From assembly GCA_016214605.1 (NCBI GenBank), contig JACROD010000020.1, forward strand, positions 30,158-94,157: DNA of 64,000 bases, given 5' to 3'. The notes below the pieces were generated by a model that ran no database searches, was not told the origin of the DNA, and saw only the letters and a program-made list of their open reading frames with translations. The position numbers were made by a program, and so were the translations under genes. Position 1 is the first letter of the stretch. Each line of letters opens with the position of its first letter. Shown here piece after piece: positions 3,041 through 45,560 of the stretch. The stretch comes from Candidatus Kaiserbacteria bacterium. Lineage in GTDB: Bacteria; Patescibacteriota; Minisyncoccia; Phycocordibacterales; UBA2100.

Positions 3041-3073
3041 GGCGGAGAGTAGCGACCGCGTATCTGTTTGGGG

Positions 3074-3082
3074 TGGTATAAT
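3074..3082 (+). promoter_or_regulatory. Extended -10 (TGgTATAAT) 6 nt upstream of ATG 3089 (possible leaderless transcript)
   Basis: Sequence tggtataat at 3074-3082, ATG at 3089. Confidence 0.35.
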
Positions 3083-3088
3083 TTTCTC

Positions 3089-5857
3089 ATGGAAACGCGC
3101 GGGATGGAGCGGACACGCTCCGCATCAGCGGAAAAATTCAAGTCTCCGCAGGAGGAGCTTGCCTATTTGCGTGAGCGCGTGCGAGAGAAAGAACGCGAGC
3201 TTGATGTCCCGTCGGGTAATCGGGTCGAGAGCGATCGTATCGCCAAGCGCGAGTTGCGTGCATATGGCGAGGTCCCCGCATCACGCGTCTTACACGAGGA
3301 CTTTGTCATACCCGAGCACGAGACGATCCGCCAAATACTCAAGCTCGAACCGGAGACTCACGACAAGCAGATCGACGGCCTTCTCGATATGGTCGCTCAG
3401 CATGGGATCCGCAATGCACTTTCCATCGCCTCGCGCATGAAAAACCCCCACCTCGAAGACGATCTACATCGGGCGATAGTACAGTATATCGCCGAAGGTC
3501 TGCCATCGTCCGGCTATATGCCGGAGAAGGTCCGCAAAGGCCTCAATATGGTGCTTTTTGAGATACATCCGCAGGCGCAGGTCGCTGGCGAACAGGGGCA
3601 AATGCAACAGCACAAACTGGAACAGATGCTCTCATCGTCGGAGCAATTGTATGCCGGACTCTTGTCGCTCGTCGGCGAAGGCGAGTCTTTTTCCCTAGAG
3701 ATCGCGGTAGCCGAGGGTACCGAGGAGGCATCGCTCTATCTCGCCGTACCACGGCAAAAAAAGGACCTGACTGAGCGCCTGATATCATCGGTTTTTCCCA
3801 ATGCGCGCATCGATGAAAACCGCGGCGATTACAATATCTTCAACTACGAAGGTGAACATGCCGCCGCCTATGCCAAGCTTGCCGAGCATCCGGCACGACC
3901 GTTGAAGACCTACGAAGCATTCGAGCACGATCCGCTCAATGTGACCTTGGCCGCCTTTGCACGTATTGCCAAGCACGGTGAAGGTGCGGCTCTGCAGATC
4001 GTCGTCTCGAGCGAAGGAGATCGATACAATCGCCACTACCAAAAGATGCTTCGTGAACTCGAGAAGGGGAAGACCATGGGTGAGGCGCTGCACGTCCCCG
4101 AGACGGTCTTTGGCGAGGTCATACACGATATCGCATCGTCGATATTTACTACGGATGCGGAAAAACAAAAAGAGAAGGAGCACGAAATGCGACGTACATC
4201 CGACTCGGTATCGGCCGAAGCGATCGGTCGCAAGATCAAAAGCCGGATCGTCCCCGTGACGATCCGGCTCGTCACGTCGGCACCGACTGCGGCGCGGGCG
4301 GAGGAATTGCTCAAGAACCTCGCAAGCCCGTTCGGTCAGTTTGACGATGCCAAGGGTAATCGCCTCGTTTTCAAGGAGGTATCGAGCTGGTATCTGGGGG
4401 ACTTTTTGCGCGCGTTTACCTTTCGCGAATTCGACGAGGGGAGTGCTTTGCCGTTTTCGCTCACCGAGATCACGTCGATCTTTCATTTCACCGCCGAGCT
4501 CGTGACCACATCGCGTGAGCTCAAGAAGAGCTACGCCAAACAATCTCCCGCCCCGGTCGAAATGCCGCAAGACGGTATCACGCTTGGTATCAATCGCTAC
4601 GGCGGGTCCGATACGACGGTCAAATTCGGCGCTGCGGATCGTTTGCGTCACGCCTATGTCATCGGCCAGACAGGTACCGGCAAGACGGGCTTGATCAAAA
4701 ACATGATCATGCAAGATATTAAAAATGGCGAGGGTGTCGCTTTCATTGATCCGCACGGCAACGACATCGAAGACGTACTCGCCTCGGTGCCGCCCGAGCG
4801 CTACGACGACGTGATCTACTTCGATCCGGCATATACGGCGCGGCCGATGGGCCTCAATATGCTCGAATACGACGTGACGCGCCCCGAGATGAAGACGCTC
4901 GTCATCGACGAGGTCTACGGCATCTTCCGCAAGCTCTATTCCGATGTGCCGGAAGCGTTTGGCCCGATGTTTGAGCAGTACTATCGCAACGCCGTGCAGC
5001 TCGTACTCGAAGACCCTGATTCGGGCAACACTTTTGTCGAGATCGCACGCATATTCGCCGACGCGGATTTTCGCGATATGAAGCTCGCACACTGCAAGAA
5101 TCCGATCGTCGTGCAGTTTTGGCGCAAAATCGCCGAGCAGGCGCAAGGCGATCCCAGCCTCGAAAACATCGCGCCGTACATCGTCGGCAAGTTCGACGTA
5201 TTCCTCACGAATGATGTCATGCGCCCGATCGTCGCGCAGGAAAAATCCGCTTTCGACTTTCGCGAGATCATGGATGGGCGCAAGATCTTTTTGGCCAATC
5301 TCTCCAAGGGGCGCTTGGGTGATCGCAATACTTCGCTCCTCGGGCTCGTGCTCGTGTCCAAATTCCTCCAGGCGGCATTTTCGCGCGCCGATACACGCGG
5401 GGATATGCCACCTTTCTATTTCTATATCGACGAATTCCAAAACTTTGCCACGCCGTCGATCTCGACGATCCTCTCCGAAGCGCGCAAATACAAACTCTCG
5501 CTCACGATCGCGCACCAATTCATCGCGCAATTGGATGAAAGTATCAGGGATGCCGTGATCGGCAACGTCGGCACCAAGGCGGCGTTCCGTGTTGGCACCA
5601 CCGACGCCGAATTCTTGTCCAAGCAGTTCGAGCCGACCTTCACCGCCGCCGATCTCGAAAACCTCCCCAATCGCAATGCCGTACTCTCGCTCCTGGTCAA
5701 TGGCAAGCCCGCGCGTCCTTTCACTATCGAGACAGTCAACCTCCCACATGTCGACTACAGCGTGGTCGACATGCTCAAAAAACTTTCGTACGATAAATAT
5801 GGAGCCGACCGAGAAGAAGTAGAGGCGGAAATAAGGCGCAAATTTGCCCAATTGTAG
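3089..5857 (+). CDS. TrwB/VirD4/TraG-family (T4SS coupling-protein-like) ATPase with ~520-aa N-terminal extension
   Basis: Walker A GQTGTGKTG, Walker B-like YFYIDEFQNF, QSxxQL-like AHQFIAQL; C-terminal half paralogous to CDS 58920-60203; TTG at 3068 judged less likely than ATG 3089. Confidence 0.75.
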   Translation: METRGMERTRSASAEKFKSPQEELAYLRERVREKERELDVPSGNRVESDRIAKRELRAYGEVPASRVLHEDFVIPEHETIRQILKLEPETHDKQIDGLLDMVAQHGIRNALSIASRMKNPHLEDDLHRAIVQYIAEGLPSSGYMPEKVRKGLNMVLFEIHPQAQVAGEQGQMQQHKLEQMLSSSEQLYAGLLSLVGEGESFSLEIAVAEGTEEASLYLAVPRQKKDLTERLISSVFPNARIDENRGDYNIFNYEGEHAAAYAKLAEHPARPLKTYEAFEHDPLNVTLAAFARIAKHGEGAALQIVVSSEGDRYNRHYQKMLRELEKGKTMGEALHVPETVFGEVIHDIASSIFTTDAEKQKEKEHEMRRTSDSVSAEAIGRKIKSRIVPVTIRLVTSAPTAARAEELLKNLASPFGQFDDAKGNRLVFKEVSSWYLGDFLRAFTFREFDEGSALPFSLTEITSIFHFTAELVTTSRELKKSYAKQSPAPVEMPQDGITLGINRYGGSDTTVKFGAADRLRHAYVIGQTGTGKTGLIKNMIMQDIKNGEGVAFIDPHGNDIEDVLASVPPERYDDVIYFDPAYTARPMGLNMLEYDVTRPEMKTLVIDEVYGIFRKLYSDVPEAFGPMFEQYYRNAVQLVLEDPDSGNTFVEIARIFADADFRDMKLAHCKNPIVVQFWRKIAEQAQGDPSLENIAPYIVGKFDVFLTNDVMRPIVAQEKSAFDFREIMDGRKIFLANLSKGRLGDRNTSLLGLVLVSKFLQAAFSRADTRGDMPPFYFYIDEFQNFATPSISTILSEARKYKLSLTIAHQFIAQLDESIRDAVIGNVGTKAAFRVGTTDAEFLSKQFEPTFTAADLENLPNRNAVLSLLVNGKPARPFTIETVNLPHVDYSVVDMLKKLSYDKYGADREEVEAEIRRKFAQL

Positions 5858-7756: not shown

Positions 7757-10054
7757 ATGGATCATATTCAAACATACAAAGTAAAAGGGATGCATTGCGC
7801 TTCGTGCGCGAGCATCATAGAAAAGACGTTCAAGAAAAAAGAAGGCGTACACTCGGTCGAAGTGAACTACGCGACCGAAACTGCGAAGGTCGCGCATGAT
7901 GCAGAAAAAGTCAGTCCAGAGCAGCTATCCAAAATCATCGAACCGCTCGGCTACTCGCTCATCCTGCCGATGGCGAATGATGAAATGAGAATGTTTGCCG
8001 AAGATCATGCCGCTCACCTCGGTCCCAATCAATCAAAGAAAGAGAAATCCACTGAACTTGCCGAGATGAAAACCAAGGTGACGATTGCCATTCCGCTCGC
8101 GATCTTCAGCGGTTTCGTCATGGCGTGGGAAATACTGGCACAATTCAATGCGGTTCCCGCCGTGCCCTATGTGTGGAGTGAGTTTTTTCACCACATCCTG
8201 CCGCTCATGGCGACGTACATGCTCTTCGTCGTCGGCAAGCCGTATCTTCTCGGTATGTATCGGTTCTTTCGATATGGAAGCGCCAACATGGACACACTGA
8301 TTGGCATTGGCACGTCGGCGGCGTATCTCTATAGTGTCATTGTTTCGGCATTTGAGGAGTCATTGCGCCCCTTTCTCAATGTCGATCATACCTACTACGA
8401 CGTGGCGATCGTCGTGATCGCGTTTATCACGCTTGGCAAATATCTGGAAGCGCAATCCAAACTCAAGACGGGTGACGCGATAGAAAAATTACTCAACTTG
8501 CAAGCGAAAACCGCGCTCGTCGTGCGGGATGGGAGGGAAGTCGAAGTGCCGATAGAGAAAATCGTGCATGGCGACATGATCGTCGTGAAGCCCGCAGGCA
8601 AAATACCCGTCGACGGAGTGGTCGTAGACGGTTCATCATACGTGGATGAAGCGATGATCACCGGCGAGCCGATGCCTGTCTCAAAGACAGTCGGAGACAC
8701 AGTGGTCGGAGGCACGCTCAACACTACGGGCGCGTTCACGTTTCGAGCCACAAAAGTCGGCTCGGAGACATTGCTTGCGCATATCATCAAGATGGTCGAG
8801 GAGGCGCAGGGAAGCAAGGCACCGATACAGACATTGGCGGATAAAATCTCAAGTGTTTTCGTGCCTGTTGTGCTTGTGCTCGCGTTCGTGTCTTTGGGGG
8901 CGTGGCTGTTGATCGGCACATCGTACCTCGGCTTCGCACAAGCGCTTTCGTTCGGTCTGGTGTCCTTCGTAGGTATCCTCGTGATCGCGTGTCCGTGTGC
9001 ACTCGGGCTTGCTACGCCCACCGCGATCATCGTCGGCGTGGGCAAGGGTGCGAAGGAAGGAATCCTCATCAAAGACGCGGCGACGCTTGAAAAATTGAAC
9101 AAAGTGAATACAGTGGTGGTCGATAAGACGGGGACCTTGACCAAGGGCAAGCCGGAGTTCATCTCGATACAAAAATTCTCACAGATGAACGATGAAAAAA
9201 TACTGGCAATTCTCGCGGCATTGGAGAAAAAGTCGGAGCATCCGATCGCGCACGCGATTGTCTCTCATGCGGAGGCGAAAGGCGTGTCCTTGCCTGCCGT
9301 GCACTCGTTTGAGGCGATCAAAGGCAAGGGGCTCAGAGGAATAGTTGAGGGTGCGGAGTATTTTGCCGGCAATGCGAAACTCATCACCGATATGCATCTC
9401 ACGATCGATACGGAAGTGCTTGAAAAAGAGACACGGAAGGGCAACACGCCCGTGCTCCTTGCGACCAGAGAACAAGTGCTTGCTCTTGTGATGGTCGCAG
9501 ATCAACTCAAAGAAAACGCAAAAGACGCCATTGATCGGCTCCACAGCCTTGGCATCAAAGTGGTCATGCTCACGGGCGATGATAAGAACACCGCCGCGCA
9601 TATCGCAAGGCGGGTCGGTATCGACGAAGTGATCGCCGAGGTAACACCCGAAGACAAACTCAACACGATTAAAAAATACCAGGCACAGGGACGGATCGTG
9701 GCCATGGCGGGCGACGGTGTCAACGATGCGCCCGCGCTCGCACAAGCCGACGTCGGCATCGCCATGGCGACGGGGACGGATGTAGCGATCGAGACGGCTG
9801 GCATTGCGCTCCTCCACGGCGACATCTCCAAGCTCGTCAAAGCGATCAATCTCTCGAAGATGACGATGCGCGGCATCAAACAGAATCTCTTCTGGGCGTT
9901 TATCTACAACATCGTCGGCATACCGCTCGCGGGAGGATTGTTCTATCCTGTATTCGGCTGGTTGCTCAATCCGGTATTTGCGGGGCTCGCCATGGCGTTT
10001 TCAAGCGTCTCGGTAGTCACCAACTCATTACGCATCAAATCAAAATCACTCTAA
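7757..10054 (+). CDS. copA: Copper-translocating P1B-type ATPase
   Basis: N-terminal [14 protein letters not shown] transmembrane motif, DKTGTLT phosphorylation site, GDGVNDAP. Confidence 0.9.
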
Positions 10055-12406: not shown

Positions 12407-13846
12407 ATGAAAGACCACTCAGGCAAAGCATCAGTGACATTTTATGGGGGAGCGGGCACCGTGACCGGTGCCAATTTCTTGCTTGACGCCGGTGACCCCG
12501 CAAATGGACGCGGGGCAGGTGTGAAGATACTCTTTGATTGCGGTGCGCTTGAGCGCGAACATGTCTGCGATACCAGCAATGGCATGCCTTTTGCATATGA
12601 TCTGCGATCGATCGACACACTCATCGTGACCCACGCGCATGCCGATCATATCGGCCGGATACCCAAGCTCGTACATGACGGCTTCAAGGGTACGATCTAC
12701 TCGACCGCCGCCACCAAAGACCTCGCCGAGCTCATGTTTGAGGATGCGATCAAAGTAATGGAAATGGACGTAGAGCGCCACGGATGCGAGATGATCTATC
12801 AAAAAGAGGATGTAGTGGCGGCGCTCACGCTCTGGCGCACGCAGGATTACCACGATCCTTTTGAAGTAGGGTCCGCGACGATCGAATTTTTTGACGCAGG
12901 GCATATCCTGGGCGCGGCGATGGTGAAAGTTACCCATGCGATGGAAGGTCAGACCTTCCATGGAAGGTCTGACCTTCCATCATCGCGTTCCATCCTTTTC
13001 ACCGGTGATCTGGGGAATTCTCCCGAGCCTCTTTTGAACGACACCGAAGCTCCCGCAGGAGTGAATTATGTAGTGATGGAGAGTGTGTATGGAGATCGCC
13101 TACACGAGGGTCGCGATGATCGCACCGATATACTGCGCCGCGCAATCGAGGATACGCGTATGCGCAACGGCGTGCTCTTGATCCCGTCTTTTTCGATCGA
13201 GCGTACGCAGATACTGCTCTACGAGATCGAAAAGATGATCGAAGACGGCGCCATGGAGCCGATCCGCGTGTATCTCGATGCGCCGCTCGCGATCAAGATC
13301 ACCGAGGTATTTCGCCGCCACAAAGATCTCTTGAATGCGCAGGTGCGCGCGCGCTTTGAAGCTGGCAATGACCCCTTCACCTTTGGCGGGCTCAAGCTTA
13401 CGGCCGATGCGTCCGAATCACACGAGATCCACAATGCGCCAAATCCCAAGGTCATCATCGCCGGTGCGGGGATGTCGGCCGGCGGGCGTATACGCTCACA
13501 CGAGAAACAGTATTTGCCCGACGAGAAGGCGACGGTGCTTTTCGTCGGCTACCAGGCACCAGGATCGCTTGGTCGGCAGATCGCCGATGGTAATAAACAT
13601 GTCACTATAGACGGCGAAAAGATCCGTGTGCGTGCGCAGATCGCCACACTCACTGGGTATTCCGGTCATCGCGACCGCGACGGGCTTATGGAATTCGTCG
13701 AGCAATTGGGTGATTCATTGGAGCGCGTGTTTGTCGTGATGGGGGAGCCAAAATCCGAGATGTTTCTTTCCCAGCGCATCCGCGATTTCCTCGGTGTCGA
13801 AGCAATAGCACCCGAGCAAGGTCAAAAGATCGAGATCGATTGGTAA
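12407..13846 (+). CDS. MBL-fold beta-CASP RNA-metabolising hydrolase (RNase J/CPSF73-like)
   Basis: THAHADHIGR (HxHxDH), beta-CASP length 479 aa. Confidence 0.7.
   Translation: MKDHSGKASVTFYGGAGTVTGANFLLDAGDPANGRGAGVKILFDCGALEREHVCDTSNGMPFAYDLRSIDTLIVTHAHADHIGRIPKLVHDGFKGTIYSTAATKDLAELMFEDAIKVMEMDVERHGCEMIYQKEDVVAALTLWRTQDYHDPFEVGSATIEFFDAGHILGAAMVKVTHAMEGQTFHGRSDLPSSRSILFTGDLGNSPEPLLNDTEAPAGVNYVVMESVYGDRLHEGRDDRTDILRRAIEDTRMRNGVLLIPSFSIERTQILLYEIEKMIEDGAMEPIRVYLDAPLAIKITEVFRRHKDLLNAQVRARFEAGNDPFTFGGLKLTADASESHEIHNAPNPKVIIAGAGMSAGGRIRSHEKQYLPDEKATVLFVGYQAPGSLGRQIADGNKHVTIDGEKIRVRAQIATLTGYSGHRDRDGLMEFVEQLGDSLERVFVVMGEPKSEMFLSQRIRDFLGVEAIAPEQGQKIEIDW
12941..12980. repeat. Tandem duplication of a 19-bp palindromic unit (atggaaggtc[a/t]gaccttcc) inside MBL CDS
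   Basis: Read directly; encodes HAMEGQTFHGRSDLP. Confidence 0.7.
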
Positions 13847-29534: not shown

Positions 29535-29539
29535 TAATT

Positions 29540-29929
29540 GGTGGAGGTGCGGGGAATTGAACCCCGGTCCAAAGAAAGATGTCGTGTATGGTCTACGTCG
29601 CGTAGGTCATCTGGTTTTTTTAAGAACAACGTAATCAAGATGAACAGAAATACGGTGTACCGAGCTCTTGTCTTAGATACATGTCGAGCGGCATGTATCA
29701 GTGCCTGATAGGTTTGACGCCTCGCGAATTCTACTCAGGTGATCAAATTCGGAGACGGAGCTTAGGCTACGAGAGCGTAAGCTGGCTGCAAATCTGCCAT
29801 CTGGATAGGTGACAAAACTGCCCGTGCTACTTTGTTCGCACTTAGGTTTTTGTGGCGGTTTGAAAAGTCACCACAGCTTTGCGACGCACATACAGGAATC
29901 GGTTTCCCTGTCGAAGCCAAGTCACCCCC
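29540..29929 (-). ncRNA. ssrA: tmRNA (SsrA)
   Basis: 5' GGGGGUGACUUGGCUUCGACAGGG…, tRNA-like 3' end GGUUCAAUUCCCCGCACCUCCACCA, acceptor G3:U70, tag frame ending …PAYALVA-UAA, smpB adjacent. Confidence 0.85.
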
Positions 29930-30151
29930 CGTGAGATACGAAAACAAAAAGTTCTAGATGCTTTCTCAATTGTTGAATGTAAGAGTAAAAGTAATGTAGG
30001 TGTTCTCTTTTATTCGAGCTGTCGTGAAGTTTGGTATCTCACGGGGACTGGCTGTGCTTGCCCCGTGACAGCCATGCTGTTTTACGGGGTTGATCGAATG
30101 TCGGAATGTGGGGCGGAATCGTGCAACGACTCCGCCACAAGGGTAGCGATG

Positions 30152-39906: not shown

Positions 39907-39979
39907 CCGTCCGTAGCTCAATGGTTAGAGCACGAAGCTTATACCTTCGGGGTTCCTGGTTCGAGTCCAGGCGGACGGA
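39907..39979 (+). tRNA. tRNA-Ile (anticodon UAU)
   Basis: Canonical cloverleaf folded by hand: acceptor ccgtccg/cggacgg, D gctc/gagc, anticodon stem cgaag/cttcg, loop cUUAUAc, T-arm cctgg-ttcgagt-ccagg; CCA not encoded. Confidence 0.75.
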
Positions 39980-40012
39980 CACGATATTGGTCTTGGTTTT
40001 ATTTGGTATGCT

Positions 40013-40996: not shown

Positions 40997-41041
40997 ATTA
41001 CACCTTGCGTGGCCTATGTGCCATGCCACAATGATGGGTAT

Positions 41042-43108
41042 ATGAAAAAATTTCTTAGCATCCTTTCTATTATTGGAATGATGATACTGCCGCTTGCAGC
41101 AAGCGCGCAGACGGTTGATATCAACAGTCTCATCGCGCAGACACAAGCGCTCATCGCGCAGATCAATGCGCTCAAAGCGCAACAGGGGTATGCATCCTCC
41201 TCTGTTGTCCCGACCACTTCAACCACAAATACTTCATCCAACGCCGGTGCGCTGACTTCCGGTATTTGTCCCACGCTTTCCCGATCGCTCTCGTACGGTG
41301 CCTCGGGCAACGACGTCTCAAGTCTACAGCAATTTCTTGCGCAAGATGTGAGCGTATATCCCGATCAGCTTGTGACGGGGTATTTTGGCACTTTGACCCA
41401 AGCTGCCGTGCAGCGTTGGCAGATGAAGTATGGCGTCGTCTCGTCCGGTGCGCCGGATTCGACCGGTTTTGGCGTCGTAGGGCCGCGCACAAAAGCCGCT
41501 ATCTTGACTCACTGTGTCCCAGGTGTGAATGCTCAGACGGGGACGCCAAATGTTGCGAGTGGTTTCATTACGGTAACGCCCGCGACCGGAAACGTACCGT
41601 TTACAACGACCATCACGGCGACCGTCAATACGTCGAATTCCTGCGTCGGCGCGACGTATATGCTTGATTTTGGCGACGGAGCGAATACGCGGCAGTACAT
41701 TTCGACAGCGGGCAATTGCAGTCAACAGGTAAAGACATTCACCCACACGTATACATCCGGCGGTGTCTATACGATCACGCTATCTGCTGGCGGGCACGAG
41801 ACGACCACGATCGTTACGGTCAACGGTGCCGGCGCACAGACAGGGGCAGTCGACTCGCTCCATGCTTCGGTTGCTTCAGGGACAGCGCCATTTTTCGTGA
41901 CATTCACTGGTTCGGTGAAGGCTGAAGATGCGGGCACTTGTACCTCCAATTGTACGGATGTTATCAATTTTGGCGACGGCGCATCGGTAGCTGTTCCGCT
42001 TCCTGTGAGAAAAGAGGGGTATCAAATATATACGACATACATCGTCAGTCATACATACACGCAGGCGGGGTCCTACATTGCCAGTCTGGTGTCCTCCTCC
42101 ACTGACCCCAATGTGTCCGTACAGACCTACGCATTCACCCAGATCACTGTGTCCGGTGCTCCGGTAGCGACACCTACGCTTTTGATCACGGTCGGCAGTA
42201 ATGCTGTGCAACAAGGAGGTATATTGCCTGTTTTTTGGTCCAGTACGAACGTCGCGACATCTTCTGCGGTCGGCCTGTGGATGGTCAATACACTCTCCGG
42301 AGCTCTCTATCCGCTTGCCATGACGCTCAACACAACAGGAAGTATGAACGCGCCCATTCCCAAGACTGCGGACGAAGGGACAGTGCCTCCGGTAGGTGTC
42401 TATGTGGCATTGGGCAAGATCTACACTCCTGCAGACGCCGTGCTCACGGGTGTGACTCCGGTATATACGGCTCTCGGGCGCAGCGACACATTCAATGTCT
42501 TAGCGAGCACTGCTGATACCAATGTCCTTCCACCAACCGAATCCTACAAGATCCTTTCAGTCGCGACGGGTGTCGGAGGAAATCAATCAGCAGTATTTAT
42601 GAACATTTCGTATCCGACCTGCTCCACCTACAAGGTGGATTGGGGCGATGGAGGAGCTCTCCAAACGGGCGGCGGTGCTTCTGCAGGATGCGGCACGCAA
42701 ACCAACATCCTACTGACTCATACTTATCAGTACAATGGTACGGCGACGGTACGTCTCATGAACGGAAGTGGTACTCAACAGGCAAGCGCGTCGCTTGCGA
42801 TAGCAAACGCAGGAACAACAAGCAAATACGGCATGCTTTCGGTGACTTCCGGCATCGGCGGAGACCCTCTCTATGTGTCGGTCCAGCTCACTGTGCCGGC
42901 ATGCCCTTCATTCTTGCTCGATTGGGGGGATAACACCCTCCCGGCATCACAGACGGCATCGCCAGGGTGCACCGGGACGACGCGCCAGACGCCGACCTTT
43001 AACCACCCCTATGCGGCGCCGGGTTCTTACATCATCAAATTGAGCGACGCATCAAGTACTTTGCAGTCGAGCTCATCGATCCACCTCTCGACGACTACGA
43101 CGCAATAA
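41042..43108 (+). CDS. Secreted protein: PG_binding_1 domain + four PKD-like repeats
   Basis: Signal peptide; …FGDG…HTYT.GG.YTI.L repeated. Confidence 0.65.
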   Translation: MKKFLSILSIIGMMILPLAASAQTVDINSLIAQTQALIAQINALKAQQGYASSSVVPTTSTTNTSSNAGALTSGICPTLSRSLSYGASGNDVSSLQQFLAQDVSVYPDQLVTGYFGTLTQAAVQRWQMKYGVVSSGAPDSTGFGVVGPRTKAAILTHCVPGVNAQTGTPNVASGFITVTPATGNVPFTTTITATVNTSNSCVGATYMLDFGDGANTRQYISTAGNCSQQVKTFTHTYTSGGVYTITLSAGGHETTTIVTVNGAGAQTGAVDSLHASVASGTAPFFVTFTGSVKAEDAGTCTSNCTDVINFGDGASVAVPLPVRKEGYQIYTTYIVSHTYTQAGSYIASLVSSSTDPNVSVQTYAFTQITVSGAPVATPTLLITVGSNAVQQGGILPVFWSSTNVATSSAVGLWMVNTLSGALYPLAMTLNTTGSMNAPIPKTADEGTVPPVGVYVALGKIYTPADAVLTGVTPVYTALGRSDTFNVLASTADTNVLPPTESYKILSVATGVGGNQSAVFMNISYPTCSTYKVDWGDGGALQTGGGASAGCGTQTNILLTHTYQYNGTATVRLMNGSGTQQASASLAIANAGTTSKYGMLSVTSGIGGDPLYVSVQLTVPACPSFLLDWGDNTLPASQTASPGCTGTTRQTPTFNHPYAAPGSYIIKLSDASSTLQSSSSIHLSTTTTQ

Positions 43109-45409
43109 TCATTCAGAATGGAGCTCCGTATGCGAGGTTTCGGTCCGCATGCGGAGCTCTTCGTGTTGTGCGAGTGTGGGGTCGGCCGCCACGATGCGTA
43201 TTGCTTCTTCGCGTGCTGCCTGGATGAGCTTCACGTTTTGGAGTGCTTCCATGCCGATGTCGGATACGCCCCACTGATGTCCGCCGCGCAAATCGCCTGC
43301 GCCGCGCGTCGCGAGATCGGCCTCGGCGAGTACAAATCCATCGTCGGACTTTTCAAGTGTCTTCAGTCGCTTGAGAGATATCTCCCCGGTCGTCTCAGGG
43401 AGGAGGAAACAGATTGGCGGATGCGAACTGCGCATGACGCGGCCGCGCAGCTGGTGGAGCTGTGCCAAGCCGAAGCGCTCGGCACCCTCGATCATGATCG
43501 CGGTCGCGTTGGGGACATTGACGCCGACTTCGACGACGGAGGTCGCCACGAGGATCTGTATTTCATTGCGTTCGAATCGTTTCATTACCTCGTCCTTTTC
43601 CTTTGGCTTCATCGCTCCGTGCAGAAGGCCGACTTCGTATTCGGGAAAGACGTCTTTTTGCAGGCGCTTTTGCTCGGCTTTGGCGGAGCGCGCCTGCAAG
43701 GCGCCGATCTTCGCCGGGTCCGGCTCTTCGATGCGCGGGCATATGACGTACGCTTGGCGGCCTTTCACCAGCTCCGCGCGGACGAGCTCGTATGCTTCGT
43801 CGCGCTGATCTTTTTTCACGATGCGAGTCGCAATCTTGGCGCGTCCCGGCGGGAGCTCGTCGAGGATGGAGAGATCGAGATCGCCATAGATGGTGAGCGC
43901 AAGCGTGCGCGGGATCGGGGTGGCGGTCATGGAGAGGAAGTGAGGTGAAGGGGCGCGGGACATTCCCACATTTCGCCCTGCGGAACTCCCTTCGGTCAAA
44001 CAGTCCTCGGTCAAAATGTGGGAATGTCCCGCGCCCTCACGGGCGTTTTTCTGCGCTAACGCGCGGCGCTGTTTGGTGCCGAAGCGGTGTTGTTCGTCGA
44101 TGATTGTGTACGCGAGGTGTTGGAACTCGACGGATTTTTGGATGAGCGCGTGCGTGCCGATGAGCATGGCGATCTCTCCATTTTTCACCCACTTGAGGAG
44201 TTGTGCGCGCGACACTTCGGTCGCTTTTCCTCTACCGATCTTGGAGGGGAATTTTTTGCACCCACTGCCGGTGATGAGACCGATGTTGATCGGGAGGTGT
44301 GAGAAGTATTCGATGAAGGATTGAAAATGCTGCGTAGCGAGGATCTCCGTCGGCGCCATATAGGCCACCTGCAAGGTCCCGCTTGTACGCCCCGGCGGGC
44401 GCGCAGTGACGATCGCGTAAGCCGTCGCCGCCGCGACCAGAGTCTTGCCTGAGCCGACGTCGCCTTCGAGGAGGCGCGCCATCGGGTGTGGTTTGCCGAA
44501 GTCTTTGAGGATGTCGTCGATCGCACGGATCTGTGCTTTGGTCGGGGGGAAGGCGATCGAGTCGAGGAATTCGTTGGCGCGCGCGTGCGCATCACTGATG
44601 GGAAATGTCTTGAACGAATCATTTTCCGCACGCTCCATCGCGCGCGTGATCTGTATCGTGAGGATCTCTTCAAAGGCAAATCGTTTGCGTGCGGCCGCCG
44701 CATGAGTGTCTTTCTCCGGTGTGTGGATATAAATGAGCGCCTCGGCGAGGTCGGGGAGATGATACCTTTTGAGGATGTCCGGCGGGATTGGATCGACTAG
44801 GGCCTCGTGTACATGCTGTGCAAAGACACGTTCGAGTGCGTGATAAAACCATCGACTCGTGATGCCTCGACTCTCCGGGTAGATAGGAAACAAAGACTTT
44901 GAATCCACTTCGACTGTGTCCGATGTCTCTCCGTTTGCAAAAAGCCCCTTGCTTGAACTGATCGCCGCCCCCACCATATCCGGCGGGATGATCTCGACCT
45001 CGGGGTTGGTCAGATACACGCGGCCCTCTTTGCCGCCGACCGTGCCGGTGACCTTGGCGACAGCGCCCTCGGGGATATACGAAGCGATGTAGGGCTGGTT
45101 GAACCACATGACCTTGACTCGGCCGGTCCCATCCTCAAACCATCCTTCAGTCGCATTGCGTCGACTCTTCCAAAGCTTCTTCGCTTTGAGTCCGTGAAAG
45201 GTCCCGATGAGCGTCACCTTGGTCCCCGGCACGAGCCCCGCCGCATTGGCCGATGCTCCTGCCGTGTCGAAGCGCACCGGGAAGTGATACAGGAGATCAT
45301 GGATCGTATGCAGTCCCAGCCGCTTCAGAGCCGCCTTCTGGTCCGGCACGAGGCGGAAATAATCGGTGATATTACTTGACGGGTCCATAATTATAGTATA
45401 CAATATCAC
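43109..45409 (-). CDS. recG: ATP-dependent DNA helicase RecG
   Basis: Wedge + helicase motifs (GDVGSGKT, DEQHRFG, TATPIPRT); start may be 45386. Confidence 0.9.
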   Translation of the reverse strand: MILYTIIMDPSSNITDYFRLVPDQKAALKRLGLHTIHDLLYHFPVRFDTAGASANAAGLVPGTKVTLIGTFHGLKAKKLWKSRRNATEGWFEDGTGRVKVMWFNQPYIASYIPEGAVAKVTGTVGGKEGRVYLTNPEVEIIPPDMVGAAISSSKGLFANGETSDTVEVDSKSLFPIYPESRGITSRWFYHALERVFAQHVHEALVDPIPPDILKRYHLPDLAEALIYIHTPEKDTHAAAARKRFAFEEILTIQITRAMERAENDSFKTFPISDAHARANEFLDSIAFPPTKAQIRAIDDILKDFGKPHPMARLLEGDVGSGKTLVAAATAYAIVTARPPGRTSGTLQVAYMAPTEILATQHFQSFIEYFSHLPINIGLITGSGCKKFPSKIGRGKATEVSRAQLLKWVKNGEIAMLIGTHALIQKSVEFQHLAYTIIDEQHRFGTKQRRALAQKNAREGAGHSHILTEDCLTEGSSAGRNVGMSRAPSPHFLSMTATPIPRTLALTIYGDLDLSILDELPPGRAKIATRIVKKDQRDEAYELVRAELVKGRQAYVICPRIEEPDPAKIGALQARSAKAEQKRLQKDVFPEYEVGLLHGAMKPKEKDEVMKRFERNEIQILVATSVVEVGVNVPNATAIMIEGAERFGLAQLHQLRGRVMRSSHPPICFLLPETTGEISLKRLKTLEKSDDGFVLAEADLATRGAGDLRGGHQWGVSDIGMEALQNVKLIQAAREEAIRIVAADPTLAQHEELRMRTETSHTELHSE
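43951..44036. repeat. Perfect 21-bp inverted repeat (gggcgcgggacattcccacat … atgtgggaatgtcccgcgccc) with 44-bp spacer, in-frame inside recG
   Basis: Read directly. Confidence 0.85.
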
Positions 45410-45560
45410 TCGGTTAGATCCTTGAGTTCAAGACATCATATCACTTTATCTCTACTTGAGACGAGCTTTTTGCGGCTTTCCGCCAGTATAGGAAGGCCCC
45501 AGCAAGCTCGTCTCATCTGAGGCAAGTCGCCGCTCGACGGTTCGAGCAAGGAGAACGACG

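Follow-up and report, generated by a model that had tools for sequence, protein, structure and literature searches.

Why a perfect palindrome should lie, in frame, within a helicase gene is the question raised by recG of a Candidatus Kaiserbacteria bacterium, a member of the candidate phyla radiation (CPR; Patescibacteriota). The gene is encoded on the minus strand of a 64,000-nt stretch of contig JACROD010000020.1 (assembly GCA_016214605.1, positions 30,158 to 94,157), which we call the window and whose own numbering is used throughout. An earlier inspection of the DNA letters, hereafter the original prediction, had described an inverted repeat that adds about 28 residues to RecG ahead of helicase motif III, and had likened it to a transposable element of the miniature inverted-repeat kind (MITE) or a repetitive extragenic palindromic (REP) element. 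As judged from sequence comparison, we conclude that the hairpin is a genuine in-frame insertion, because the site is empty in the nearest ortholog and the segment is absent from both RecG sequences taken from the Protein Data Bank (PDB). The reading that we favor, and consider probable, is that of a non-autonomous hairpin repeat resembling REPs and the Rickettsia palindromic elements (RPEs), which sits in frame in recG, is mobilized in trans and is translated as a tolerated loop.

An in-frame hairpin insertion in RecG

The features of the locus are listed here in the direction of recG transcription.

43109..45409, minus strand: recG open reading frame (ORF), 766 codons counted from the first GTG
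44087..44098, minus strand: codons of helicase motif II (DEQH), upstream border of the variable loop
43951..44036, minus strand: complete hairpin element of 86 nt, 23-bp perfect arms and a 40-nt centre, in frame in RecG
44014..44036, minus strand: 5' arm in mRNA/core sense, GGGCGCGGGACATTCCCACATTT, of lineage-specific sequence
44007..44015, plus strand: direct repeat TCGGTCAAA, second copy, in the window copy only
43978..44009, minus strand: conserved core C-GA-GGAC-UGUUUGA-CCGAAGG-GA-GUUC-CGCA-G, from the family comparison
44003..44006, minus strand: GGAC, 5' strand of the invariant 4-bp helix, pairing with GUUC and including a G.U wobble
43992..44000, plus strand: direct repeat TCGGTCAAA, first copy, in the window copy only
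43989..43995, minus strand: apical mini-hairpin CCGAAGG, a GAA triloop on a C-G pair (family equivalent GCGNAGC)
43983..43986, minus strand: GUUC, 3' strand of the invariant 4-bp helix
43951..43973, minus strand: 3' arm AAATGTGGGAATGTCCCGCGCCC, perfect complement of the 5' arm
43904..43927, minus strand: codons of helicase motif III (TATPIPRT), downstream border of the variable loop

The inverted repeat occupies the predicted position, but its perfect arms measure 23 nt and not 21, and they enclose 40 nt rather than 44. At 93% complementarity the arms reach 28 nt, and four further pairs (GTGA/TCAC) follow past a 2-nt bulge. Folded as RNA, the mRNA-sense strand yields -65.5 kcal/mol (z = -7.5 versus shuffled controls) and the opposite strand -57.8 kcal/mol (z = -5.5). 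The corresponding folds of single-stranded DNA (ssDNA) give -37.9 (z = -8.1) and -33.2, the core-sense strand being the stabler one. The short direct repeat that had been noted in the centre is present, but it is private to the window copy and not a feature of the family: cggtcaaa occurs twice because UUUGACCGA is found both at the inner arm and at the UGUUUGA/CCGAAGG junction, and the repeat is missing from the other family copies compared.

All RecG domains and helicase motifs are intact in the window ORF, and an identical protein is on record (P0001; 759 aa in the NCBI call). Between motifs II and III the hairpin reads in frame as ...AR-EGAGHSHILTEDCLTEGSSAGRNVGMSRA-PS..., with ILTEDCLTEGSSAGR as an example of the peptide within the insert. 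When RecG was aligned by HMMER to its counterparts from T. maritima (1gm5) and E. coli (9wm0), residues ~456-490 stayed unaligned and the alignment was split exactly at the hairpin. In the closest ortholog (P0002, locus L001; 88-91% identity) the site is empty, with 27 codons fewer. We further analyzed 83 metagenome recG loci as DNA, ignoring the reading frame, and found a DEQH-to-ATPIPR spacing of 81 nt in 62 of them versus 171 nt in the window. The anticipated in-frame indel is thus borne out by the empty site of P0002 and by the gap against 1gm5 and 9wm0. Orthologs with the same residues, which would have spoken for an ancestral segment, do exist, as P0004 and P0005 carry a homologous insert. 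It is therefore not private to this genome, while the empty site of P0002 upholds its nature as an insertion.

The suggestion of an insertion-tolerant region likewise holds, since orthologs carry from 0 to +41 codons at this position and AlphaFold2 (AF2) renders the insert as coil, with a predicted local distance difference test (pLDDT) score of 25-38. In this model the insert would add ~27-30 amino acids that are probably disordered and leave the helicase motifs undisturbed. Because the frame is kept in every case, the insert is most likely translated, and it would represent a surface excursion that is tolerated in RecG rather than useful to it.

The repeated unit is a conserved core on covarying arms

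The original prediction had proposed searching for other copies of the arm. The 23-mer has no further match in the window with up to 3 mismatches allowed (0 expected by chance), and the arm is not the repeated unit. That unit is the asymmetric centre, C-GA-GGAC-UGUYUGA-[mini-hairpin]-GA-GUUC-CGCA-G, with the arm excluded. Going inward, the core consists of an internal loop, the 4-bp GGAC/GUUC helix with its G.U pair, another internal loop in which GA dinucleotides face each other and, at the tip, a variable mini-hairpin that usually bears a GNA triloop. Over all variants, the invariant portion is CUGUYUGAG-[stem]-CGAGUU. A CGA precedes GGAC in 125-129 of 130 copies, a feature that our search pattern (see below) did not demand, and 129 of the 130 retain the G.U wobble in the 4-bp helix, even though the pattern permitted C.

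The arms behave differently from the core. In an alignment of 43 sequences, 15 of 16 arm pairs were changed on both sides, and 72.6% of the cells were paired, compared with 34-42% when the partners were slid against each other. The covariation score was 0.40 versus 0.145, and none of 500 shuffles reached 0.40. Among arm mismatches, G:T (63) outnumbers A:C (39; p = 0.02, with copies that are not independent of one another). C-G-closed GNA triloops cap 55 of 130 copies, 16 of them as GCGAAGC, and the window carries CCGAAGG. DNA mini-hairpins with GNA loops are very stable (PMC13037366), and such mini-hairpins are present in enterobacterial REPs (PMC2817692).

The core is dispersed over about ten phyla

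We searched the pattern GGACTGTYTGA-N5-35-GAGTYCCGCAG in contigs representing one genome per species and found it at at least 120 loci in about 10 phyla, cultured isolates among them. The matches listed derive from Beta-, Gamma-, Delta- and Epsilonproteobacteria, Nitrospirales (Nitrospirota), Spirochaetes and many CPR groups, and further from Lachnospiraceae (Firmicutes), Coriobacteriia (Actinobacteria), Bacteroidales (Bacteroidota), Planctomycetes, Myxococcota and Gastranaerophilales. Nearly every listed match tops a hairpin with its own lineage-specific complementary arms, and 119 of the 135 matches listed lie outside long ORFs. Elsewhere in CPR bacteria, a GT2 glycosyltransferase of Paceibacterota contains an in-frame copy, two Saccharibacteria have one in the isoleucyl-tRNA synthetase (IleRS) and a Microsaccharimonas has one in RecJ. 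Several copies per genome were seen in Marinobacterium (4 loci), Dechloromonas (3 in 8 kb), Nitrospirales and Halieaceae. The covariance model R1 assigned 70.4 bits (E~2e-15) to the window element at 43960-44024 and recovered diverged copies outside recG on two CPR contigs (L015 and L017) and on a Ralstonia megaplasmid; the copies on Ralstonia megaplasmids are intergenic and unannotated. On L017, the diverged copy (9655-9752) has 22-bp perfect arms and the core variant GCACUGUUUGAG...CGAGUUUGC, and it lies ~250-350 nt upstream of a recG gene whose own site is empty.

The versions from Betaproteobacteria and Gallionellaceae (L154, L093, L096, L136, L148 and others) are ~150 nt long and modular. 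They contain three GAG-NNN-CGCAG boxes, for example GAGTAGCGCAG, the GAGTTCCGCAG of the core, and GAGCAACGCAG, of which the first and third stand opposite each other in the stem; an additional hairpin with a GNA loop comes next. These copies often form inverted pairs, 0.2-1.7 kb apart, around small hypothetical ORFs. At L134 (1815-3566), an ORF of 440 aa that by eye resembles a DDE-type transposase lies between opposed copies with different arms. This arrangement suggests an insertion sequence (IS) that entered, or landed beside, a cluster of hairpin elements, as known for REPs.

In annotated collections, neither phages nor any of 5,426 E. coli genomes contained the core. Viral contigs with the core numbered only 5, and no viral sequence matched the arm of the window copy; on these grounds we rejected a viral vector and guide-like arms as explanations.

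The motif II-III loop of RecG is a hot spot

In all 21 of the 83 recG loci that carry extra sequence, motifs II and III remain in frame without an intervening stop, and every insert, from +18 to +123 nt, is palindromic or hairpin-forming. Among the 120 closest RecG proteins, 90 have an empty site, 11 carry +4 to +13 residues and 19 contain large inserts. All 30 insert-bearing orthologs are frame-intact, in a set of full-length protein hits that is biased to intact frames. On the RecG tree, occupied sites group in two clades and scattered single tips. Clade A comprises P0001, P0004 and P0005, with P0002 secondarily empty, while clade B intermixes both orientations, several frames, remnants and empty sites.

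The core is common to the recG loci WIN (the window copy in these comparisons), L002, L004, L026 and L205-L210, and in Kaiserbacteria takes the form ATTTTGACC-GAGGACTGTYTGA-[GCGNAGC]-GAGTTCCGCAGG-GCGAAAT. The outer arms of the large recG inserts, 21-30 bp in length, are near-perfect inside a copy but unrelated across species; homology between arms is recognizable only among WIN, P0004 and P0005, each of which is still perfectly paired. Within recG the core occurs forward and reverse, in at least 4 combinations of frame and orientation, all of them open, and it is read as peptides such as EDCLS..SSAG, GLSEQSEFR, LRNSLRSDSPR and CGTRSAQTVL. Recombination between the inverted arms could flip the core in place. 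As the arms are inverted repeats, changes of orientation alone do not prove independent insertions. The site has been occupied for long in Kaiserbacteria, and its history would combine vertical inheritance with inversions of the core, erosion into short palindromes, losses and, probably, gains on more than one occasion. The recG loops of L211 (P0003) and L025 form hairpins of ~130-140 nt (-74 kcal/mol) that lack the conserved core; thus, other palindromic sequences also use this hot spot.

Relation to known repeats and structured RNAs

To our knowledge, RPEs are confined to Rickettsia and conserved over their full length. Here only the ~32-nt apical core is conserved, it spans about 10 phyla and its arms vary, as far as a comparison by description can tell. 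Like RPEs, the element is a palindrome in frame in conserved genes (recG, and the genes of IleRS, RecJ and GT2 in other CPR bacteria) that is absent from orthologs. As outlined in PMC3184786, the RPEs of Ogata et al. (2000) are palindromic repeats placed in frame in protein genes of Rickettsia, and the same outline gives them ~100-bp palindromes, intergenic as well as in-frame copies in housekeeping genes, a read-through peptide, and presence or absence among orthologs.

REPs and REPINs are GC-rich imperfect palindromes that act as ssDNA hairpins with GNA loops such as GCGaaGC, have neither target-site duplications (TSDs) nor terminal inverted repeats (TIRs), and are dispersed, mostly intergenic, often in inverted pairs and seldom next to the enzyme that mobilizes them, a RAYT transposase of the HUH Y1 type (PMC2817692, PMC3733652). 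Our element shares with them the lack of a TSD, the extragenic position of most matches listed and the GNA triloops, and an ssDNA form would be in keeping with these traits. REPs, in contrast, measure 20-40 nt, bear a 5' GTAG/CGTC tag and are species- or genus-specific, whereas the present elements span 60-150 nt and are conserved at the tip of the hairpin and not at its foot. The window arms start with GGGCGCGGG and have no terminal GTAG/CGTC; the GAGTAGCGCAG boxes of some betaproteobacterial copies are internal. RPEs would thus be the closest analogue in behavior and REP-like ssDNA hairpins the closest in mechanism, both as analogies that do not establish membership.

MITEs (Correia/NEMIS, ERIC, BOX/RUP/SPRITE, Nezha) are also non-autonomous, form long hairpins and occasionally fuse in frame to ORFs (PMC3184786, PMC3049150). 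They are defined by TSDs and by TIRs matching a parent IS, neither of which was found for the recG-type element. From copy to copy the outer arms show no relationship, even in recG orthologs of one clade, so that conserved TIRs are absent. No TSD separates the window copy from the empty site of L001, and in 23 cleanly bounded elements we detected neither a TSD nor a flanking motif, abutting direct repeats of 0-2 nt being at chance level. When the 1,063 ORFs located up to 2.5 kb from 120 loci were clustered all against all, no protein family recurred, the top clusters being spurious frames through the element itself, and by eye we recognized no ORF resembling a RAYT beside the inverted pairs inspected. 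A classical DDE-type MITE is excluded by the missing conserved TIRs, TSDs and linked transposase. Of the class originally proposed, a hairpin repeat of the REP, MITE or RPE kind stands, but the MITE hallmarks do not.

The attC sites of integrons carry conserved R''/R' boxes (RYYYAAC/GTTRRRY) at the foot, have a variable centre, lie between cassettes and keep a single orientation. They are likewise folded single-strand recombination sites that retain structure while the stem sequence varies, but our elements show the opposite pattern of conservation, with no R boxes seen by inspection. The mitochondrial GC-cluster 'byp' elements are reportedly mobile GC-rich palindromes in coding genes that disrupt the reading frame and over which the ribosome jumps; in the hairpin element the frame is always preserved. 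The betaproteobacterial BRE, or bprJ small RNA, is a GC-rich hairpin repeat of ~90 bp that lies mainly between genes, with a number of copies in coding sequence, and contains mini-hairpins of the GCNGC-GNA type (Hot et al. 2011, PMC3110155). Our core strings are absent from the published list of Bordetella BREs (List S1), and the BRE consensus ...GGCAGCAAGCCCGCATAGCGGGCGCAGCG... differs, which makes it a separate family.

Scans against Rfam 15, run at gathering and at permissive settings, returned no family match for the window region, the best hits being generic long-hairpin microRNA models at 31 bits versus a threshold of 168. Fifteen further loci and the versions from Gallionella and Nitrospira likewise gave nothing beyond generic hairpin models, with hammerhead, twister, twister-sister, pistol, hatchet, HDV-like and Y RNA/YrlA models included. 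In the literature, the core strings retrieved only unrelated primers, and keywords retrieved no description; given the limited coverage of such searches, we call the family undescribed provisionally. Several known motifs were rejected by inspection. The core CUGUYUGA...GAGUU lies in a linear stack without a three-way junction, unlike a hammerhead (CUGAUGA...GAAA). The loops around the 4-bp helix measure 2x4 and 7x2, unlike a bulge-helix-bulge (BHB) intron motif. The IRE1/XBP1-like CCGCAGC is not placed in a 7-nt hairpin loop. A selenocysteine insertion sequence (SECIS; UGA plus hairpin) does not fit, as the UGA does not fall in frame in recG.

A proposed trans-mobilized hairpin and its alternatives

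As a REP/RPE-like hairpin repeat, the element would move, or would have moved, as a strand-specific folded single strand (ssDNA, REP-like) through an enzyme that acts in trans and is encoded elsewhere. Either selection acting on the hairpin or correction templated by it would keep the arms complementary while their sequence drifts freely, and in recG the ribosome would read through the hairpin, adding about 27-30 residues. More tentatively, the core might be the recognition or catalytic module of an unrecognized class of hairpins in ~10 phyla, either the substrate of a single-strand-specific enzyme or a small structured RNA or ribozyme. In the gene-dense genomes of CPR bacteria, its copies would persist by occupying, in frame, those loops of housekeeping proteins that tolerate insertions, the II-III loop of RecG being a preferred one.

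Several points weigh against the favored reading. The filter-free R1 scan found no second copy in the 64-kb window, other hits scoring at most 15 bits. Neither a mobilizing enzyme nor a target motif nor a TSD was identified, so that the case for mobility comes from the distribution of copies. That a core of ~32 nt stays nearly identical from phylum to phylum is not what one expects of a purely selfish repeat, and the core may have a cellular function. The excess of G:T over A:C in the arms is modest, and AF2 confidence is low across the entire 438-524 region. The argument for translation is the conserved frame seen in the sequences, and random insertion does not explain why the same RecG codon position is used repeatedly.

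The alternative that survives best, although we consider it rather unlikely, is that the core is a functional structured RNA (a k-turn-like protein site, a processing signal or a self-cleaving ribozyme) on a variable helix. In that case the dispersed copies would serve as RNA genes or in cis-regulation, and the one in recG would influence the stability, pausing or cleavage of the recG mRNA. Strand-specific conservation of the core, including the near-invariant G.U pair, agrees with this view, as do the strong covariation of the helix, the better fold of the sense strand compared to the antisense strand, and a cross-phylum spread like that of small ribozymes and other structured RNAs. The arrangement GGAC-bulge-GA...GA-GUUC also resembles a k-turn, by inspection only. 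However, among copies flanked by co-directional genes 11 are antisense and 6 sense (a mixture uninformative on strand bias), and the core lies in both orientations in recG and in reverse in ileS and recJ, so the sense RNA is often not on the mRNA strand. Moreover, apical GNA triloops are typical of DNA hairpins, in contrast to GNRA or UNCG loops, Rfam gave no match, known small ribozymes included, and self-cleavage within an ORF that looks essential would be harmful.

It is very improbable that the insert goes untranslated, whether because an endonuclease and a ligase (RtcB, for example) cut it out of the mRNA or because the ribosome skips over it in the manner of T4 gene 60 and 'byp'. The hairpin within the ORF is indeed very stable (-65 kcal/mol), its pseudo-symmetric loops around a 4-bp helix loosely recall BHB or IRE1 sites by inspection, and CPR bacteria harbor unusual intervening sequences in their rRNA. 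Against this, all 21 DNA-level and all 30 protein-level inserts are in frame without stops (the protein set being biased to intact frames), and the core is open in at least 4 combinations of frame and orientation, although removal or bypass would relax this constraint. Furthermore, the loops are not the canonical 3-nt bulges of BHB sites, and there are neither matched take-off and landing codons nor an adjacent stop.

Least probable of all, and already largely refuted, is a local palindrome that arose de novo by template switching or replication slippage, or an ancestral variable RecG loop of Kaiserbacteria, unrelated to the dispersed element: the window holds no further copy, all length variants are palindromic, short core-less ones included, the recG hairpins of P0003/L211 and L025 lack the core and a second core-less palindrome of 42 nt lies in frame in another window gene, yet the recG centre matches the core at at least 120 unrelated loci and in other genes, the R1 model built from those copies recovers the window element at 70 bits, and the closest ortholog has no insert.

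Other features of the window

The gene downstream of recG (41009-43108, plus strand) encodes a large secreted repeat protein and converges on the 3' end of recG. In L206, L208, L209 and L210, the neighbors of recG give PG_binding_1 and PKD hits, showing that synteny is kept in the clade. Just upstream of the recG start, the intergenic gap contains an inverted repeat with 25-nt arms (45457-45515; 84% complementary), possibly a terminator or a further hairpin element, which does not reach significance with the family model.

A perfect 42-nt palindrome, GATGGAAGGTCAGACCTTCCA|TGGAAGGTCTGACCTTCCATC, lies in frame at 12940-12981 (plus strand) in the gene of a beta-CASP/metallo-beta-lactamase (MBL) RNase (ORF 12407-13846). 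It is read as ..AMEGQTFHGRSDLPS.. and forms an insertion of ~14 residues relative to T. thermophilus TTHA0252 (PDB 3ie2). It lacks the core and is possibly a relic comparable to the short palindromes of other recG genes. Within a 934-aa ORF (3053-5857, plus strand), an imperfect inverted repeat at 4224-4286 (29-nt arms, 72% complementary, 5-nt loop) may represent a decayed third in-frame hairpin. The window further contains a tRNA-Ile gene at 39907-39980 with the anticodon UAU, which is uncommon in bacteria, and a transfer-messenger RNA (tmRNA) gene at 29539-29929, whose 5' end is overlapped by an imperfect inverted repeat (29914-30059).

Implications

In-frame palindromic repeats are best known from Rickettsia (RPEs) and are regarded as a curiosity of few lineages. 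RPE-like in-frame behavior now extends to CPR/Patescibacteria, in recG, ileS, recJ and a glycosyltransferase gene. The original prediction was broadly right, and the cross-phylum core family and the hot spot in recG are the more interesting result. If our reading is correct, a structured repeat family that spans phyla is missing from Rfam and from the literature searched, and a trans-acting factor that reads the core would have to be expected. The family would also be a natural experiment in compensatory evolution, with arms randomized across species yet essentially perfectly paired. Should the core be the substrate of a single-strand enzyme, it would represent a new mechanism of mobility that works without TIRs and TSDs, with arms that evolve freely and stay paired. 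For the CPR bacteria themselves, such inserts lengthen and diversify proteins and may mislead annotation, alignment and structure prediction, and the covariance model R1 is able to flag them.

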